Source of the DNA: Folioceros fuciformis
Taxonomy: Eukaryota
Direction: 5' to 3'
Assembly: GCA_049999805.1 (NCBI GenBank)
Contig: JBNGIO010006195.1
Location: 1-36,526 of the forward strand
Length of the DNA: 36,526 nt
In this document: positions 7,450 to 30,663 of the stretch, piece by piece
Numbering within the stretch: position 1 is the first letter of the stretch
Layout: each line of letters begins with the position of its first letter
The notes under the pieces: model-generated
Told to the model about the DNA's origin: nothing
Seen by the model: the letters and a program-made list of their open reading frames with translations, nothing else
The model's database searches: none
Position numbers and translations under genes: made by a program

Positions 7450-8073
7450 TGAAACGACTCTGATGATACCAAAGCAAACATCTTAAGGCGGGACAACGAG
7501 TGGCCACAGTACATTTTGTGCAATGCTGATGAACTGTGCGGAGCACAGAGGACCCACTTGATGAACATCCACTGTCTGGAGAGTGGCCGAGTTATATGGG
7601 ATGGGAAACACCAAGGTCCTGATGGAGTAATAGATACGCGGCCCATAGTCATGTGCAAATACTTTGCGTGGCGGGGTAGAATTTGGCGACTTGAACAGGA
7701 GGAACACCGGCACAATTTGGTGACTTTTGGTATGTCGGAGTTGGAAAGGAGCCCATACATGTGGCGCAGGGTATCGGTTCTGCCTGAGCATTTGCACCAC
7801 GTGCTCTTCGATTCGCTGAGGTACCAGCGGCGGGCGAGGAATGGAAGGATCCGATTGGACGGTGCAACCTTGTCGGGCGATACAGTGTATTTCACTGTCG
7901 CTACGGACGTTGTCCCCCACCATGACAGGGAGTGCACGCACCTGGTGAGCTACCACCTTCCCCAGAATGCATGGCGTTACGTTTCCGCATGCGAGGGTAA
8001 ATTCGAGTGGAACAAACGCTCGTGCTCTCTATTCCGGCCGAATGGTGTCGGTGTTTCACAGGTTTCTACCTAG
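7450..8073 (+). pseudogene. 3' half of an F-box family gene (no F-box visible upstream)
   Basis: ORF 7516-8073 (LEQEEHRHNLVTFGMSELERSPYMWRRVSVLPEHL...ATLSGDTVYFTV...DRECTHLVSYHL...LFRPN) aligns by eye with the C-terminus of the 2094-2789 protein. Upstream lies AT-richer tandem repeat. Confidence 0.65.
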
Positions 8074-10845: not shown

Positions 10846-11443
10846 ATGGCGTTGGCTCCTTTCTTCACAAGCTCGGGCAATGACAGCGTCTGGGAGCCCG
10901 TGTCTATCGATCGACTGTTCGACCCCTTCGAGCGCTTCGGGCGGGCGGAAAGTACTCCCGCTCGCTCTTTCGCCAGAGATGCGTCTGCGGTAGCCAGCAC
11001 CAGGGTTGATTGGAAGGAAACGCCAACTGCTCACGTTTTGAAGGCCGATTTACCTGGTAAGCATTCCTGTCTGTGAAAGCAGGGTCCGCTTGAGACTCTT
11101 CTTTGGATGCGCGATGGAATTGTGGATGTCCCGTTGTTGACACTAGACATGCTCCCAATTCTTTGCAGGTTTGAAGAAAGAAGAGGTGAAGGTGGAAGTG
11201 GAGGATGGCAATGTGCTGAAGATCAGCGGAGAGCGCAGCAAGGAAGAGGTGCAGGAGACCGACAAGTGGCACCATGTGGAGCGCTCTTACGGCCAATTCC
11301 TTCGGAAGTTTCGGCTTCCTAAGAGCGTGAAGCTCGATCAGATTGCAGCCAGTGTGGAGAACGGCGTTCTCACTGTCACCGTGCCCAAGGTTGAGGAGAA
11401 GAAACCTGAAATTCGACGCATTGATGTGACATGGGCCGAATGA
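10846..11443 (+). CDS. Small heat-shock protein (HSP20/alpha-crystallin, cytosolic class I-like), 161 aa; exons 10846-11056 and 11169-11443
   Basis: MALAPFF...DPFE...[42 protein letters not shown]...[18 protein letters not shown]...[11 protein letters not shown]...IDV. A 112-nt GTAAGC...TTGCAG phase-1 intron joins the two frames. Confidence 0.95.
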
Positions 11444-11949
11444 ATCATATCAAGAGCTGGCGGATGGAAGCGAACTCTCATCCGTTTGTAGCTACCAGCT
11501 GCGAAAATGCCACCCCACGACTGCTTGCAAGCGGCTTTTGCGGGTCTGCCTGTGTGGGCATTCTGCTTGAGCCTACTAGGATGTGTGCTATTGTAGCAGT
11601 TTCTGTGAGGTTTGCTAATTGCAGTGCTTACCAGTCCCCGGACTAACTCGAAAGCGTTACGCTTACATGCAACATTTAGCGTCCATCCCTGCAACCCATT
11701 TCCATTGTCAAACAAACTGAAAACCGTTGCGTCTTCGTCAACATTTTGATGTCCATCATTGCAAGCTACTTTCATCATACACTGTTGCTAGGGTGCCCCT
11801 CTTGCTACTTCGATATACTCCCCCTGCCATCCGCAGGAGTGAAAGAGGCTGCTACTTCTTCGTCACTACCTCAGTCCCCCCGGTGGTACCATCCCAAATA
11901 ACCCTTCCACATTTGAGACAATGAATGGTCATTAACTTGTTCCACCTTT

Positions 11950-12920: not shown

Positions 12921-13518
12921 ATGGCGTTGGCTCCTTTCTTCGCAAGCTTAGGCAATGACAGCGCATGGGAGCCCGTGTCTATCGACCGACTGTTCGATCC
13001 CTTCGAGCACTTCGGACGGGCGGAAAGGACACCCGCTCGCTCTTTCGCTAGGGATGCGTCTGCGGTAGCTAGCACCAGGGTCGATTGGAAGGAAACGCCA
13101 ACTACTCACGTTCTCAAGGCCGATTTGCCTGGTAAGCATTCCTGTCCGCGAAAGCACGATCCGCTTGAAAGTCTTATTTGGATGCGCGATGGACTTGTGG
13201 ATGTCCCGTTGGTGACACTAGCCTTGCTTCCAATTCTTGGCAGGTTTGAAGAAAGAAGAGGTGAAGGTGGAAGTGGAGGATGGCAATGTACTGAAGATCA
13301 GCGGAGAGCGCCGCAAGGAAGAGGTGCAGGAAACGGACAAGTGGCACCATGTGGAGCGCTCTTACGGCCAGTTCCTTCGGAAGTTTCGGCTTCCCAAGAA
13401 CGTGAAGCTCGATCAGATTACAGCCAGTGTGGAGAACGGCGTCCTCACTGTCACCGTACCAAAGGTTGAGGAGAAGAAACCTGGAATTCGACGCATTGAT
13501 GTGACGTGGGCCGAATGA
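12921..13518 (+). CDS. Small heat-shock protein (class I-like), 161 aa; exons 12921-13131 and 13244-13518
   Basis: Near-identical paralog of 10846-11443, with the same 112-nt intron (GTAAGC...TGGCAG) in the DLPG codon. Confidence 0.95.
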
Positions 13519-14149
13519 ATTATATGAAGAGGTAGCCGATGGAAGAGAACTCTCATCCATTTGTAGCTACTAGCTGCAGGTGACGGAATGTTTGTCCCAG
13601 TGACGGAATGTTCCTCTGCGAATACGGCGCTCCAACTTTCTTCGTTTCGGAGTGCAACCGAGACTGATCGGAAGCGGATTTTGCGGAACTGCCTGTGTGG
13701 CCATTCGCATGTCCTATTTTAGCAGTCTTTGTGAAGTTTGCGAATAGAGTGCCCACTAGTCTTGTGATGAATCGAAAACCGTAGCGTTTTTATGCAACAT
13801 CGTGATATCCATCAGTGATGTGGACTTCAAATGTGAACAACCTCACTTTTTGGCCCTCTCCTTGCGTGATACACTCCCCTGCGACCCACTGATGCGAAAA
13901 AAACCTCTGACATGCGAAAGCGATGCAAAATTTCGATTCTTTGCGGTACTGTTGTCACCCTGACTTTGCATTCCAAGCGGGGTTGAGCATCAGTTTCGGT
14001 GAAAGTAAGGCGTAACACGGGTCGCAACCAACTTCCTGACATCAGGTGAGTGACACAAGAACTGCAAATTTTAGACGTGAACTTCAAACTGTAGACTTGA
14101 GTTCGGCAGGGATGTCGAGAATTGTGTCATGCGCAGCTTTGCAGAAAAT

Positions 14150-15620: not shown

Positions 15621-16756
15621 TGAGTTTGTCACTGCTGTTACGCAAGACCAAAGTTCGAGAGCATTTGCTCGGTGGAATAGAAGCAAATCGAAAAGCACAT
15701 CAGCTCATGTTTCTCGACGTGCACAGATTCATGGTCGTGGCTTTAATTGTGTAGCCCTACTTATCACAGGGAAAGGCAGTCGTAGATATGTCAGAGGAGC
15801 TGAGAGAAGTTGCAAGGACTTTTGTGGCTGCTACAGCGTTCTTGGATGCTCTCTCTATTGTCTCAGGGTCGGAAACCTATACTGAGTACGTCATGAGGAG
15901 TGGTATCTGGGTGCTTGGGGCAAGCATGTCTGTTCTGGGCTTGTCTCAGAAGGCCGTACATGTGCAAGGACATGGCTGGACATGGTCATGGTCATAAGCT
16001 TGACGGACATGGAAATGAGCTGTTTCGTATGCCCCGTCTAGCAACAGCTAAGAAGGCATCAACCGCACAATCTGCTGAAATCCTCATCCCTCGTGTCTTC
16101 CGACTGAAAATATGAAAGGAAAATTACGCCTGAAAAGAAACAAAGAATGTTAAGAGAGTTTACGTAGTACGTAAACTTCAAGCGTGTGCGCGAGGAGAGG
16201 ATCCGTGATTCCAGTTGTACTATCTTCATTCTTCGCCCAACTACCAGGCGCTTGCCATCCCATCCAGGCCTTGTGGATCCCATCAAAGGCGTAACCACGA
16301 TTAGTTCGTGGTTACGCATGTCAGGCTCTCGACGAAAGATGGCACACCCACTACATTACACCCACTGACCACCAGCCGCGCCTTCATCATGGCCTTAGAC
16401 TCCAAGGATTTGCCTTGGGCCACAGCAAGCAGAAACTCGACAGCAGAGCCAGGAACGATTTCATGGTGTCTGTCGAACGGAGACCCGGGCAAGGATGGGT
16501 ACGTTACACCAACCACTCCAGGTCCAGCCCGCATGCATACCCGGCACGGCATTCGATGGCTAGCTCCTTCAGCCCTGCTGCTCACTTCCTGCTCCAACAT
16601 ATTACATTCAAGACTTGCTGTGCAACCTGCTGAAGAAATAATCTGTCGCCTTGAGGTTCCTGTGGCCTTGCCTGGGCTTTGCATCAAGCTGCCTGACACC
16701 GCCGTCACTCTGATGTGCAGAGGCAGTCTCCCCTCCAGAAGCTGATCAAGAGCACT

Positions 16757-19524
16757 ATGAATGTGAGCCGACTTCCGTTCATGGTGACAGCCCTGGCCGC
16801 GCTCCTGCTCTCGCAAGCCCTTTTTGCCACAGTCGTCGGAGGAATCGAGCCAGGGGACGAGGCAGGGCGNNNNNNNNNNNNNNNNNNNNNNNNNNNNNNN
16901 NNNNNNNNNNNNNNNNNNNNNNNNNNNNNNNNNNNNNNNNNNNNNNNNNNNNNNNNNNNNNNNNNNNNNATCAGGAGCCGTTTTGTTGGGGAGATGGGAT
17001 CGAAGGGAGACTGGGAAGGGGGGCGAGACGAGAGTGGGTTCCATGGCTTTCAAGGATTCGCTTTTCTGAGACGTGGATTTGCGTCTCCGAGACGGGGATT
17101 TGCTGGACACCATAAGCACGGAGGACATCACCGGAACTGGATTCACCACCGGAGTCCACATTCACGCCGCAGGCGGCACGGGATCGTGAGGGACGTGCAC
17201 GTGGACGGCGCACCGTCCGCATTTTCTGTGATGGATTTCGGCGCTGCTGGCGATGGAGAGTCGGACGACACGCAGGCGAGTGTGGATGTTTGTGGTCATG
17301 GGTCGTTGCAATTCTTGCTCTCCAGCCTTCAGGGCCGGGGCTTTGATGAATTGTTTGAGCGTTGCAGGCGTTTGTGAGCGCCTGGGATATGGCTTGTCAA
17401 TGCGAGGGCGATGTTCTCCTGTCTGTTCCTGCCGGCGGGACGTTTGTGGTTGGCCCGAACCTCAACCTGGAGGGCTGGAATTGTTCATCAAGCATCACCC
17501 TCCAGGTCCCGGTCGAGCCCCTTTCACTGGCGCCGGCAGGATCGTTCCAAGAATTTCCACTCCACTTGCAAGCACAGCACGAAAGAATCGGGATTCCATC
17601 TCCTGACTGAGTTATGTGATGCTGCTCCAGGTGAATGGCGTCATTTCTGCTCCCCTGGATCCAGACGCGTGGAGCGCTGCTGGTGTGGATGCTGGGACAT
17701 GGATCAAGATTTCCCATGTGAGCGATTTCGTGCTTACTGGAACCGGTACCATCGACGGAAGCGGCCACAGTTGGTGGGCTCAGTCGTGTAAAAGAGTTCC
17801 CGACAATGTGAGCGAAACTTCACTTGATCGTCTACGGCTTAAGCATTGTTCATCAGCATTTACAATATCCTTTCAAAGGAAGAGTTACAAGGATGTAGGT
17901 ATCCCGCTGTGGGTCATGACAGCGGTGACTAATTCTTGGTGTGAATTTGGCATTTGATGATCTGGTGTAACAGCCTTGCCGGACTTCTCCCAAAGTAAGA
18001 GGAAATTTCTTGATCCTGAGACTCCTTGACAAATGGAAGCAGTGGACAGCGTAAAAAAAACGGTGGTGGACTACACTATGTAGATCTTGAATATATTTCG
18101 ATGATCATGCAGGCAGTGTTCATCACCGAGAGCTCGAATGTGGTGGTGAGCCAGCTCACGTTTCTCAACAGCCAGACTATGCATTTGGTCTTCCATTACT
18201 GCAACCAGGTGTTGGCCACCGGTCTCAACGTTTCAGCTCCCGAGATGTCTCCCAACACAGACGGAATTCACCTCCAAGAGACACCAAATGCTGTCGTCCA
18301 AGACTCTGTGATACGAACAGGTGATATTTCGCAACAAATAGCCAGCCAGGTCTATCGTTTTCACTCTCCTACCCCATTTCTTTTCCTTTGCAAGAAAGGG
18401 TGTGAAGAAAACCTCGGTCTCCTTTGCGGAGACTTCACGTCATCTTGGGCGGGTGGGTTTCAAGTTCAGGAGATGACTGCATCTCGATCCAGACCGGGTC
18501 CGACAACGTACTGATTCGGAATATCGTCTGCGGACCTGGGCACGGAATAAGGTATCAGAACAAACCGATCGAACAGAGTCATGAGCCTGGGTAAAATGCA
18601 TATGGGGGCCTGACCACAGTTATTCCGCGAGCAGGATTTACACCTACCGACGCCTACCGCAGGCAGTTACTAGAGCTGTTACAGGAGCAGTTCTTGGGCT
18701 GTTTGCTGTTGGTGCCCGGTGTTGTCGTGTCGTTACAGCCCGTGTCAAGCTGCCTTGCGTTTCCAGCCCCCCCTGCTGAATCCTGATGCATGCGCATGCA
18801 TGATGCAGTATCGGCGGCCTGGGCAAGGAAGACTCATATGCCCAAGTCTCCAACGTGCTGGTTCAGAATGTCACACTGTCAGGCTCCACCAACGGCCTCC
18901 GAATCAAGTCTTGGCAGGTACGCTCGTTTGCCAACGCATATGCATGTCTATTTGGGATATGTCATCCTATGCTGCCTACACGACCCGACATCCTGCCTGT
19001 TCACATGGTGTGGGATTCAGTTCATCGTAACTTTGGACCTGGGATGATGTGGATGGTACTCCTCACGCAGGGAGCCTCGGGATCCGTGAACAATGTGACA
19101 TACACCGCAGTGCACATGGTGAATGTGGCCAACCCCATCATCGTGGACCAGTACTACTGCGACTCCGAATCTCCGTGTCAAAACCAGGTGATGAATCTCA
19201 TCGCTTGCCTGCAGTGGGCATTTGTGGATGTTGCAGGCTTTCAGCCATGTGGGTGAGGAAGAGGAAGTGAATGAATTTGTGTCAGATTCACGACAGACAT
19301 CGGCCGTAAAGATCAGCAATGTTCTGTACAATCGTATTTGGGGCACATCAGCAACGGTTGTAGCTGTGAAACTCGCGTGCAGTGAAAGCGTGCCGTGCGA
19401 GAATGTTGTGTTGGAAAACATTGCCTTGACGATGGATGGAGGACAGGCTGCCTCTGCCTTTTGCCTAAGCGCTGCAGGAGCAAGCGTAGGTCAAGTGGAG
19501 CCTCCAAGTTGTTTGGCTGCCTGA
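16757..19524 (+). CDS. Polygalacturonase (GH28), secreted; exons 16757-17275 (spans N gap), 17368-17505, 17631-17807, 17974-17994, 18113-18320, 18470-18551, 18809-18917, 19071-19187, 19297-19524
   Basis: Signal-peptide-like N-terminus and motifs [57 protein letters not shown] and [10 protein letters not shown]. All splice phases are consistent. The start and exon 1 are uncertain because of the gap. Confidence 0.93.
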
Positions 19525-22024: not shown

Positions 22025-25000
22025 TCAAGTAGTGTACTCAGCATTGATTCTCACATAGTCGTAGCTCAGATCGCAACCCCAGGCCTTGCTCTGACCTCCA
22101 CCATCACCTAAAAAACACACGGCGAGAAGGCAGTGAATAGAAGCTCCATGCCAAAAACATGGAACTGCATGCTGAGGAAACATGTAACTGAATTCAAAAC
22201 ACAGGCAATAGTGATGCCAAGAGTGACTAGTTACCAATGGAAATATTCAGTGCCACCGTGCCGTGGACATCACCCGCAGATCGCAGGTAGCTGCTAGCAG
22301 CCACTCTGAATGAGCCCATACGAGCATTACAACAAAAAAAATGATCAGATAACATCGCCAACTCCATCGATCCGATTTGGAGAAATCCAGACCTTCAAGC
22401 AAAACCNNNNNNNNNNNNNNNNNNNNNNNNNNNNNNNNNNNNNNNNNNNNNNNNNNNNNNNNNNNNNNNNNNNNNNNNNNNNNNNNNNNNNNNNNNNNNN
22501 NNNNNNGCATGCTATACGACCCCAGTTTGGATCCCTTCCAAAGACAGCTGCCTGCAAGAAAAGATCAAAGAGAATTTCAGAAATTCATTGAGAATTAAGG
22601 CCCTCAGAACATTTGCTATATTGTCACCATGGCAAAGCCATCAGGTCTCAAAGATTGTAATAACCATCCTTGGGCAGCGAAGACAAATGCCAAAAGAAAA
22701 TGCAGGCAACGCACTCAAATCAAATACGAGGGTCTTGTCAGAACGTTATTCCAAAATTGGCATCAACATGGACTAATCTCTGATGACCGTCGTGATGGAA
22801 TGTATCATCATTCAAGACTTCCAAGCAAAGGAATCAGGTGCTTCAGACCCTGACCACCCGGATTTAGTCAGCTTATCAGACAGAGTGGGCCAGGAGGTCC
22901 GACCTACTTCCAGAAATCTGAAACAAGTCGACACGTGAAAAGTGTACCCAAAGAACATTCACCTCCTGAGGATACAGTGTTCAAAACTAACCCAGAGTGC
23001 TACTGCTCACCGCAAAAGCTCAGCCCCTCGGAGAAAAAGGGATACTCAAGATACACGGATCCAAAGGATTCTCTCAGACAAATGCCTCGTTTGACCTCAC
23101 AGTAACTGGAAACCCAGCTGCCTGACTTCCGCACTGAGGATCAGATTATGGATAGAACATCCAACATCATTACCTTCAAGTGCTTTCTGCTCAAGGCAAG
23201 AACTCAGTCTCGTCATCCATAATGCATCATCGAGAACAGGCACAGAAGTCACATCTTTTGTTCACAAGTCTCTCTCAGACAAATGCCTCATTTGACTTCA
23301 CAGTAACTGGATAACCAGCTGCTTGGCATAGGCACGTCGGATCAGATTATGAATAGAACATCCAATATCTTTACCTTAACGTGATTCTGCTCAAAGCAAG
23401 AACTCGGTCTCGTCATCCATTCTGCATCCTAGAGAGACAAATATAGACTCCATGTGGACAGGTGGAAGGTAAACATTGGAAGGGAGTTCAGAAGAGCTTG
23501 GGATAGCAGATTGACTTCGTAACTAAGGCAAGATACCTTTTGTCAGAGATAGGAACACCTCGACAGCAATCATGAGTGATGTGTAACGGCTGATATTCAA
23601 AAAATGACTGCCAGCTCTGATAATAATCAGGTAGAACAAACTGCAGGCATTAGCGTATTACCTTAGTCAATGAAGATGCAGCCACCGAGCGTGCCACAGT
23701 TGCTGCTGCTGCTTCACTCCCAGCACCTCTCACACTAACCTGTGTGAAGAAACATGTTAAATCGATTTCATACAAGTGCACAAAAAAGTCCTAAAGTTCT
23801 CAGATGTTGAACACCATGATACAGGAATAAATACGACACCACTGGATAAACAGAAAGACCTCTATGAGACATGTAGCACCTTCTCCATCTGATGCTATGG
23901 CCTTCGCTAGAGATTGCAGTACCTATTCAAACCACAAACTCGTGAGTCTGGCTAGTCAAGAGCACAACAAATGCTCACTATGCAAAGCTCACATTGCCAA
24001 GGACTCACCGCATCAAGTGCAGCTTGAAGTTCAAGAGCCTCAGGGCTATCTAGGTCACTAACGAGTTCCCCTCCACATGCACCATTAGCAAAGGCCAAAA
24101 GAGTGTCATTTGTGCTGCTGTCACCGTCCACCTGTCAAATCACAAGTTTAGAAGGGAAATTTTTAAAAATGCTTTCCATTCTCAGTTGTAGAAGTGGAGC
24201 CAGGCTTCCACTTACCGTGATCTGATTGAAGCTGCGGTTAACAGCTTTCAGCACCATTGGTCTCCAAACTTCAACTGCCACATGGGCATCACAGGTCACA
24301 ACCTGCAACGAAAGCCACAGCATCATGGATGCCACTTTGAAGAAAAACATACGACGCAGTTGTTCAACTACTGCCAAACCTTACCCCCAGCAAGGTTGCC
24401 ATGTTTGGATGAATCATCCCTGAGCCTTTTGCAATTCCACCAATCCGTATCAAGGATTTTCCAACCTGTTGCAACCAGTCAAAGGCGTTCAAGGCAACCT
24501 GAATGAAAAAAGGATTGTCATCACTCTAATAACAAGAACGAGTACCTTTGTCTCCACTGCTACACTCTTGCTAACAAGGTCGGTAGTTGTGATGGCCACA
24601 GCAGCTGCATCTGATCTGTTCCCAGACGAAAGAAACAATGCCACCATCTCAATAAACGGCCAGCTCAGAATACATATCCCTGTACTCCAAGAAACACAAG
24701 ACATGTGACAGATTTCTTCACCCATCACTGCCTTCGGACAGAGATGAAGCTAACTCGGGAAGCGATTTCAACAAAGCTTCCTGCAAATTCACAAACATTG
24801 AACACTTTCAACCTGTGCATGGCATCTCCCGTGCTAGAAGAGCTCATGCATTTCACCGAGATACCTTCTAAATCGTAACAAAGCGAAGACAGAATACCTT
24901 CTTAATGCGCTGCCCAATCACTCCAGTAGACTCAATCAGTATGCTTCCCACAGGAACTCCCAAAACCTGCAACCAACAACCAAAGCAGGGCCAATGATCA

Positions 25001-30105: not shown

Positions 30106-30663
30106 ATGAAACCTTCGTTGAAGAAGGCGATGAGGCGGCTTCGGTCGAGTGGCAGAATAGATTATGTGGAGCTGTCCGGCTCCCCGATCTACCACCACCG
30201 GAGGTTGCAGCGGCAGGCGCTGGGATCTACTTCGTTTGATACAACCGCATTGCTGGAGAGGCAGGAGATCAACTCCCCCGTGCAGACGAACTCGCTCTCC
30301 TGCGTTGGGAGCTTCACGGTGAAGAAGCCCAAGGAATTGGTCACCATCTTGGTAGGCAAGGAGATGCGGGTGTTCAAGGTTGAGCCTCAGTTTCTTGAGC
30401 ACGGATTGTTCCAATCTCTTCTGCACAAGACTGGCCGGAGCGGGTACGATGAGAACTGGGTGTGGTATGAGAAGGAGAACGAAGACTACTGTTACGGACG
30501 CGGGCGTAAGTCTTCCGCTTCATCTGTGGAGTACTTGAGGAGCAAAAGTCTTTGCATTGACTGTGATGTTATCTTGTTCGAGCACATTCTTTGGCTCCTC
30601 AACAACGATGATCCCTCCATCCGACACCTCAACCTGGATGAGTTGATGGAGTTTTACAGCTGA
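30106..30663 (+). CDS. SAUR-like (auxin-inducible family) protein, SAUR76-78-like, 185 aa, intronless CDS
   Basis: VTILVGKEMRVFKVEPQFLEHGLFQSLL...CDVILFEHILWLL...LDELMEFYS matches the SAUR76-78 pattern VYVG..RR.Y.......HPLFQEL...CEVVLFEHLLWML...EL.EFY. A possible 3' splice site (TCTCGCAG) sits just before the ATG. Confidence 0.82.
   Translation: MKPSLKKAMRRLRSSGRIDYVELSGSPIYHHRRLQRQALGSTSFDTTALLERQEINSPVQTNSLSCVGSFTVKKPKELVTILVGKEMRVFKVEPQFLEHGLFQSLLHKTGRSGYDENWVWYEKENEDYCYGRGRKSSASSVEYLRSKSLCIDCDVILFEHILWLLNNDDPSIRHLNLDELMEFYS

Follow-up and report, generated by a model that had tools for sequence, protein, structure and literature searches.

Intronic snoRNA clusters with several snoRNAs per intron, all on the host strand and with non-ribosomal genes among the hosts, have been described from rice, Arabidopsis and Ostreococcus (clusters 3 and 5). 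In rice, 15 of about 31 intronic snoRNA loci were found in ribosomal-protein genes (PMC3022908), and in Ostreococcus 33% of the intronic hosts were assigned to ribosome biogenesis and 18% to RNA processing (PMC7671301). Metabolic and plastid genes are also represented. In Arabidopsis, the intronic cluster snoR79a-c is located in At1g31860, which encodes a bifunctional protein of histidine synthesis, and the intronic cluster snoR90a-b in the plastid-development gene At2g33430 (PMC2875012). A comparison of 44 genomes led to the conclusion that snoRNAs move and that their hosts mainly need broad expression (PMC3511168).

Among the families involved here, U15 carries dual guides for two LSU sites, with the same box order, in Arabidopsis U15a/U15b (SNOR75, RF02539), vertebrate SNORD15 (RF00067), Ostreococcus Ot-CDsno42 and the present copies; the yeast counterparts, snR13 and snR75, serve single sites. 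It was reported that Arabidopsis U15 methylates 25S A2282 and G2289, and that the Arabidopsis targets of U15, U35 and snoR66 are methylated in the wild type with scores of 0.96-0.99 (PMC8053127). No study of non-seed-plant snoRNA clusters was found in the literature searched; in the sequence supplement of the main plant survey the name Selaginella occurs at least 8 times, in at least four families.

The locus described here shares the general traits of these intronic clusters. It very likely represents a heterologous polycistronic cluster of four predicted methylation-guide box C/D snoRNAs, a passenger of a single intron in the ArgJ gene of a non-seed land plant, which it entered in one lineage. 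The whole stretch of DNA analysed, 36,526 nt in length, is referred to as the window.

Host gene

The host is a multi-exon ArgJ gene on the minus strand, as read from the translation of the window, and six of the seven exons scanned matched Pfam PF01960 (ArgJ) in profile order. Thirteen ArgJ introns were modelled, all of them GT-AG. The 12 introns upstream of the long one measure 80-120 nt, compared with 1110 nt for the latter; these sizes cover the part of ArgJ that lies 5' of a scaffold gap of 100 N (22407-22506), and the 3' part of the gene lies beyond that gap, which cuts the exon just 3' of the snoRNA intron. A second gap of 100 N is found at 16870-16969.

A contig of 1698 nt from run X1, more than 99% alike to the window, skips exactly the 1110 nt together with the short introns, the skipped stretches having CT..AC ends. 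The type of run X1 was only guessed to be RNA, and it is the spliced joints that identify the 1698-nt contig as RNA. The claim of a sequence-only reading of this DNA, that ArgJ has a single long intron of 1110 nt, was borne out for the part 5' of the gap, both by the sizes of the 12 upstream introns and by the splicing seen in this contig. In a small ArgJ tree, the ArgJ of the window was placed outside the flowering-plant clade; judged from its sequence, the source is a land plant outside that clade, and intron size and GC hint at a hornwort.

Content of the long intron

Four box C/D snoRNA genes are carried by the long ArgJ intron (Table 1). On the host strand their order from 5' to 3' is U15 copy 1, U15 copy 2, U35 and snoR66. 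In all four, terminal C and D boxes are closed by a stem of 4-6 bp and internal D' and C' boxes are present; the C boxes of U15 copy 1 (AGGAUGC) and snoR66 (AGGAUGG) are non-consensus. Several snoRNA genes in one spliced intron and on the host strand is the arrangement by which a plant intronic polycistronic cluster is recognised, and the antisense elements of about 10 nt or longer beside D or D', with +5 on a known methylation site, are those of box C/D guides.

Table 1. Positions in the window of the long ArgJ intron, its flanking exons and the features within it
Feature	Position	Strand	Length (nt)	Details
ArgJ exon 5' of the long intron	23662..23739	-		Pfam ArgJ profile positions 258-283, E 0.0054; covered by spliced contig
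Long ArgJ intron	22552..23661	-	1110	GT-AG, phase 0, after ...SSLTK; from gene model and spliced contig joint
Intron leader before first snoRNA	23438..23661	-	224	No RNA recognised; chance-level Rfam matches, fold z -0.18
U15 copy 1	23269..23437	-	169	C AGGAUGC 23430, D' CCGA 23407, C' GUGAAGU 23301, D CUGA 23278; 6-bp terminal stem
U15 copy 1 hairpin insert	23303..23403	-	101	D'-C' interval; fold z -3.5 against dinucleotide shuffles
U15 copy 2	23069..23236	-	168	C AUGAUGC 23230, D' CUGA 23207, C' GUGAGGU 23100, D CUGA 23077; 5-bp terminal stem
U15 copy 2 hairpin insert	23102..23203	-	102	D'-C' interval; fold z -2.5 against dinucleotide shuffles
Spacer between U15 copy 2 and U35	22820..23068	-	~250	No RNA recognised; no credible Rfam match, whole-segment fold z 0.13, no H box
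U35/snR73 homologue	22732..22818	-	87	C AUGAUGA 22811, D' CAGA 22782, D CUGA 22741; 6-bp stem
snoR66 homologue	22600..22675	-	76	C AGGAUGG 22670, D' CUGA 22644, C' AUGGUGA 22630, D CUGA 22607; 4-bp stem
ArgJ exon 3' of the long intron	22507..22551	-		From translation and contig joint; cut by N gap 22407-22506

No snoRNA family reached its Rfam gathering score anywhere in the window, where the sole gathering-level Rfam match was a tRNA. At the level of E-values 18 Rfam matches were obtained in the intron, all on the host strand, and these resolved into the four genes. The best of them was snoR66, matched over the full model with 37.4 bits (gathering 43, E 7.9e-6). U15 copy 1 scored 22.2 bits with SNORD15 (gathering 75), U15 copy 2 scored 23.2 bits with SNORD15 and 29.8 bits with SNOR75 (gathering 50), and U35 scored 26.6 bits with plasmodium_snoR20 (gathering 45) and 18.3 bits with SNORD35 (gathering 36). 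The Rfam check against SNORD15 and SNORD35 that had been proposed with the sequence-only reading gave sense-strand matches for both families, but below threshold. The U15 copies, whose scores stay below gathering, are assigned by their guides as functional homologues and not as members of the Rfam families.

That reading had also proposed a polycistronic box C/D cluster with U15 and U35 in the ArgJ intron, with which the boxes, stems and guide registers agree. It counted three snoRNAs on the sense strand; two U15 and one U35 are indeed there, but snoR66 was missed and the count is four. The +5 register on LSU rRNA that it assigned to the guides holds for U15 and U35; snoR66 is aimed at SSU rRNA. 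The labels U15b and U15a are not assignable, since both copies carry both guides and are identical at 141 of 170 columns.

The two U15 copies

The guides in both copies are directed to the equivalents of Arabidopsis 25S A2282 and G2289. In each copy the +5 position falls on the A for box D and on the G for box D', seven bases apart, and the D' guides measure 9-11 bp. At the 29 columns where the copies differ, the boxes, guides and pairs are left intact. A tandem U15 duplicate is also found in the U15a-U15b cluster of flowering plants, but the neighbours of U15 are U35 and snoR66 here and snoR7 and snoR18 there.

The main difference from other members of the family is in size, which here includes a hairpin of about 100 nt between D' and C'. 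Arabidopsis U15 measures 81-84 nt (PMC5122169), Ostreococcus Ot-CDsno42 measures 121 nt (PMC7671301) and the Rfam SNORD15 model has 146 positions, compared with 168-169 nt in the window. The inserts fold into an irregular hairpin. All 34 pairs tested are kept in both copies, four of them via changes on both sides, and within the insert two compensatory and two one-sided changes separate the copies. The same level of covariation was reached by 31 of 500 shuffles, a comparison which, with two sequences only, has little power. In Arabidopsis U15 the top loop carries a long complement to downstream rRNA; only 6-nt matches of this kind are present in the U15 of the window.

In a second organism (X2 record 5), a contig was found in which about 150 nt separate the two U15 guide ends, and the long form of U15 is therefore not unique to this genome. 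By eye, about 30 bases on each side of U15 copy 2 (23040-23068 region) resemble the loose ends of this contig, which hints at a conserved start of the spacer. Another X2 contig, of 154 nt, is identical to 23054-23207 and may be carry-over. Variation in the D'-C' length is already known for the U15 family, and the copies of the window are at its long end. The chances appear to be even that the long hairpin is the older form, which was then shortened by flowering plants. A snoRNA nested in the insert was considered and rejected, the C-like and D-like motifs being situated in the hairpin and having no conserved target. Matches of the long-U15 pattern in two loci (L022 and L023) were taken as chance, with no snoRNA match there.

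snoR66

The D' guide of snoR66 forms a 12-nt perfect complement to the SSU rRNA, with +5 on nucleotide 38 of the complete SSU rRNA in L017, the equivalent of Arabidopsis 18S C38. Guide and register are common to snoR66 (RF00202) and Chlamydomonas CrCD33, and the C' box AUGGUGA is that of CrCD33. Arabidopsis snoR66 is located in a snoR161/snoR66/snoR118 cluster (PMC2875012), in contrast to its association with U15 and U35 here.

U35 and its D-adjacent element

The D' guide of U35, which starts at -3, is directed to the equivalent of 25S C2960, with a register matching that of Arabidopsis U35 (PMC5122169); the yeast site is C2959. Its 11-nt complement was present in 5 of 21 rDNA loci, namely the five that hold the site.

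The bases before box D (AACGUU) match those of Plasmodium PFS17, the RNA of the Rfam family plasmodium_snoR20, and not those of Arabidopsis or Ostreococcus U35. For Plasmodium U35 a single target is listed in PMC2656528. In four plant-type loci this D-adjacent element pairs over 12 bp (2 G-U) with the LSU rRNA near the equivalent of Arabidopsis U2505, which in Arabidopsis has a score of -0.045 and is unmethylated (PMC8053127). The score of the pairing was reached by 6 of 150 random 20-mers. Alternatively, the element, with its palindromic core, pairs with GAACGU just upstream of the C2960 site, and snR73 is listed among the snoRNAs with extra pairing (PMC3116282). Judged by its pairings, the element could possibly be a second guide or an extra-pairing element. 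That U35 has a second guide, shared with Plasmodium, which methylates an LSU uridine unmodified in Arabidopsis, is rather unlikely.

In the fungal snR78-snR72 cluster, snR75 is located upstream of snR73. The order of U15 and U35 is alike here, and no U27/snR74 guide was found between them; the likeness to the fungal cluster is probably a coincidence. U15 and U35 belong to different clusters in Ostreococcus (PMC7671301), in contrast to the single cluster here.

Spacer, leader and rejected candidates

About 470 nt of the intron are without recognised RNA. An H/ACA reading of the spacer was rejected for lack of an H box, and one of the leader because H-like and ACA motifs occur there with no second hairpin. 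Local folding windows that reached a z of about -3 against mononucleotide shuffles were the best of many and were disregarded. At the 5' end of the intron, a 10-nt LSU complement before CUGA at 23630 suggested a fifth C/D snoRNA; it was dismissed, as a C box is lacking and 19 of 150 random 20-mers scored equally. Before CUGA at 22871, a pairing of 17 bp maps to a variable part of the LSU rRNA in a non-plant locus and has no extension in plant-type loci. The leader was also compared with U15 as a possible decayed third copy, and nothing was found beyond one 24-nt stretch at 71%.

rRNA targets and chance matches

The rRNA reference consisted of 21 eukaryotic rDNA loci obtained from prokaryotic assemblies and belonging to other eukaryotes than the source; the rRNAs were located in 11 of them. 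Such rDNA is present in at least 21 prokaryotic genome records (L001-L021), in some of them as complete units that include group I introns, and probably represents contamination. The viral contigs searched gave no rRNA match and the plasmid search no plant rDNA. Since the U15 target itself served to retrieve these loci, finding a U15 match in 21 of 21 is circular, and it is the register that counts.

In a control run against one full rRNA set, 4 of the 26 D-like boxes on the sense strand of the intron had a perfect rRNA complement of 10 nt or longer next to them. The corresponding figures were 2 of 25 for the antisense strand of the intron and 12 of 778 for the window outside it. At 9 nt the counts were 6 of 26 on the sense strand compared with 48 of 778 outside the intron. 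All six sense-strand matches fall in the register of known methylation sites. The enrichment of complements is modest on its own, and the agreement of the registers at known sites is the stronger point; these registers are identical to those of the Arabidopsis counterparts of U15, U35 and snoR66.

The orthologous ArgJ intron in other plants

Thirty plant ArgJ loci were obtained by scanning metagenome contigs for the acceptor site that matches this intron. In 27 of them, which represent 12 distinct sequence types, the upstream exon could be located and the intron measured; the other three were left out. The orthologous intron is 76-159 nt long in all 27. Rfam detected no snoRNA in the 17 of the 30 loci that were scanned, and no intact guide-plus-box motif was present in any of the 30. 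A 10-mer like that of snoR66 occurs in some ArgJ loci, without a D' box in the two inspected. Three of the short-intron loci (L025, L041 and L044) were placed outside the flowering-plant clade in the small tree. The short and snoRNA-free intron of the other loci indicates that the association of the snoRNAs with ArgJ is confined to this lineage or to a narrower group. Inspection of the orthologous intron had been suggested along with the sequence-only reading, and it yielded no second case of the cluster in the measurable loci.

In one locus (L032) more than 400 nt upstream of the acceptor are without a recognisable upstream exon, which points to a longer intron; neither a snoRNA motif nor an Rfam match was present in it. 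A GC donor (GC-AG) was observed at the orthologous intron in L026, L027, L030, L048 and their look-alikes, and GT elsewhere.

Other features of the window

A tRNA gene is located at 386-457 on the minus strand (71 bits); its anticodon, read from the alignment, is CUG, as in tRNA-Gln. A single-exon SAUR-like gene lies at 30106-30660 on the plus strand, with PF02519 on 21 of 21 homologues. The named homologues of a neighbouring gene, from lycophytes and mosses, are at most 52% identical. By eye, two small heat-shock-protein-like genes (about 10900-11450 and 12921-13560, at least one apparently with an intron), a multi-exon polygalacturonase-like gene on the plus strand (about 16700-19520) and two related divergent F-box-like reading frames, also on the plus strand (2013-2789 and 7453-8073), could be recognised.

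Discussion

The cluster would be transcribed together with the ArgJ pre-mRNA, as known plant snoRNA biology suggests. By analogy with plant snoRNA processing, the released intron would be cut between the members and the RNAs trimmed to their terminal stems, after which each RNA would direct fibrillarin to the nucleotide that pairs with its fifth base upstream of D or D'. The expected sites are the equivalents of Arabidopsis 25S A2282, G2289 and C2960 and of 18S C38. The cluster very likely entered the ArgJ intron in one lineage, with U15 duplicated in tandem, and ArgJ would be merely a broadly expressed host without a dedicated link to arginine or nitrogen control.

Alternatively, the cluster could possess its own promoter in the 224-nt leader and be transcribed independently, ArgJ being only its address. 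Independent polycistronic clusters are the norm in plants (PMC5122169), and the leader alone is twice as long as a normal intron. In X2, moreover, the U15 piece is located on a 1434-nt contig with no ArgJ exon among the pieces listed, a weak point as the flanking exons are unaligned for the X2 ArgJ contig too. However, telo box, TEF box, USE and TATA motifs are all absent from the intron, and its only site II motif, at 22886, is in the middle of the cluster. All four genes are on the host strand, and one X1 intron contig spans 23661-23403, starting exactly at the 5' splice site as unspliced pre-mRNA would. An internal promoter is improbable. The contig depths (97.7 for the spliced contig of X1 and about 3 for its two intron contigs; 63.5 for the U15 contig of X2 and 32.9 for its ArgJ contig) are not expression levels. 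The pair of telo box and site II motif marks the promoters of many snoRNA host genes in rice (PMC3022908). A telo box (26553) and a site II motif (26409) precede the 5'-most recognised ArgJ exon by no more than about 600 nt; in the window as a whole, telo boxes number 3 and site II motifs 43.

Decay of some or all members into copies without stable RNA, most likely of U15 copy 1 or snoR66, could be suspected from their non-consensus C boxes, from the low Rfam scores and from the position of snoR66, whose end lies just 47 nt short of the 3' splice site; it was also reported that 20% of the unconfirmed Arabidopsis predictions came from unexpressed snoRNAs (PMC8053127). However, the six main guides are intact and in register, none of the four terminal stems is disrupted, and where the U15 copies differ, their boxes, guides and pairs have been spared. 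A C box ending in GG is found in Arabidopsis and Chlamydomonas snoR66 as well (PMC5122169). Such decay is extremely unlikely.

The sequence-only reading considered a plastid arginine enzyme to be an unusual host. By analogy with the histidine-synthesis and plastid-development genes of Arabidopsis, and with the rice loci, about half of which are outside ribosomal-protein genes, ArgJ is less unusual than was claimed, and metabolic hosts have precedent. The cluster in the Arabidopsis histidine gene differs in consisting of three H/ACA copies, compared with four C/D RNAs of three families in ArgJ. No report of ArgJ as a snoRNA host was found in the literature, on which the host tables of the rice and Chlamydomonas cluster papers may bear. 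The same reading proposed that nitrogen metabolism is coupled to rRNA methylation, the cluster being kept in ArgJ to tie methylation to arginine synthesis and nitrogen status. Cotranscription would make the supply of precursor follow ArgJ transcription, and the copies of the window may be the only ones in the genome. However, the association is absent from all 27 other measurable ArgJ loci, and in Arabidopsis methylation at the four target sites is almost complete (PMC8053127). In Ostreococcus the level of a snoRNA did not track the expression of its host in the one pair examined (PMC7671301), the choice of hosts is explained by broad expression (PMC3511168), and literature joining a snoRNA with ornithine acetyltransferase was not found. 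The proposed coupling is therefore very unlikely, and drift into a broadly expressed gene is the simpler explanation.

A bolder joint reading can be constructed, in which U15, U35 and snoR66 now come solely from the ArgJ intron of this non-seed lineage and methylation follows nitrogen as a consequence, U35 has a second guide and the long U15 is ancestral. Taken together this is highly improbable, and the nitrogen link is its unlikely step; if it were true, methylation of core rRNA sites would follow the transcription of the arginine pathway and the nitrogen status.

Based on the results of this study, the cluster as a passenger in ArgJ adds to a known type of arrangement and opens no new mechanism. 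Its four snoRNA genes would escape standard Rfam annotation, and they belong to a region of the plant tree with hardly any catalogued snoRNAs. The second guide of U35, tentative as it is, would provide a testable prediction of a methylation site differing from Arabidopsis. With entry in one lineage being very likely, the locus would serve as a clean example of how a snoRNA cluster can move into the intron of a housekeeping gene in a lineage-specific way.
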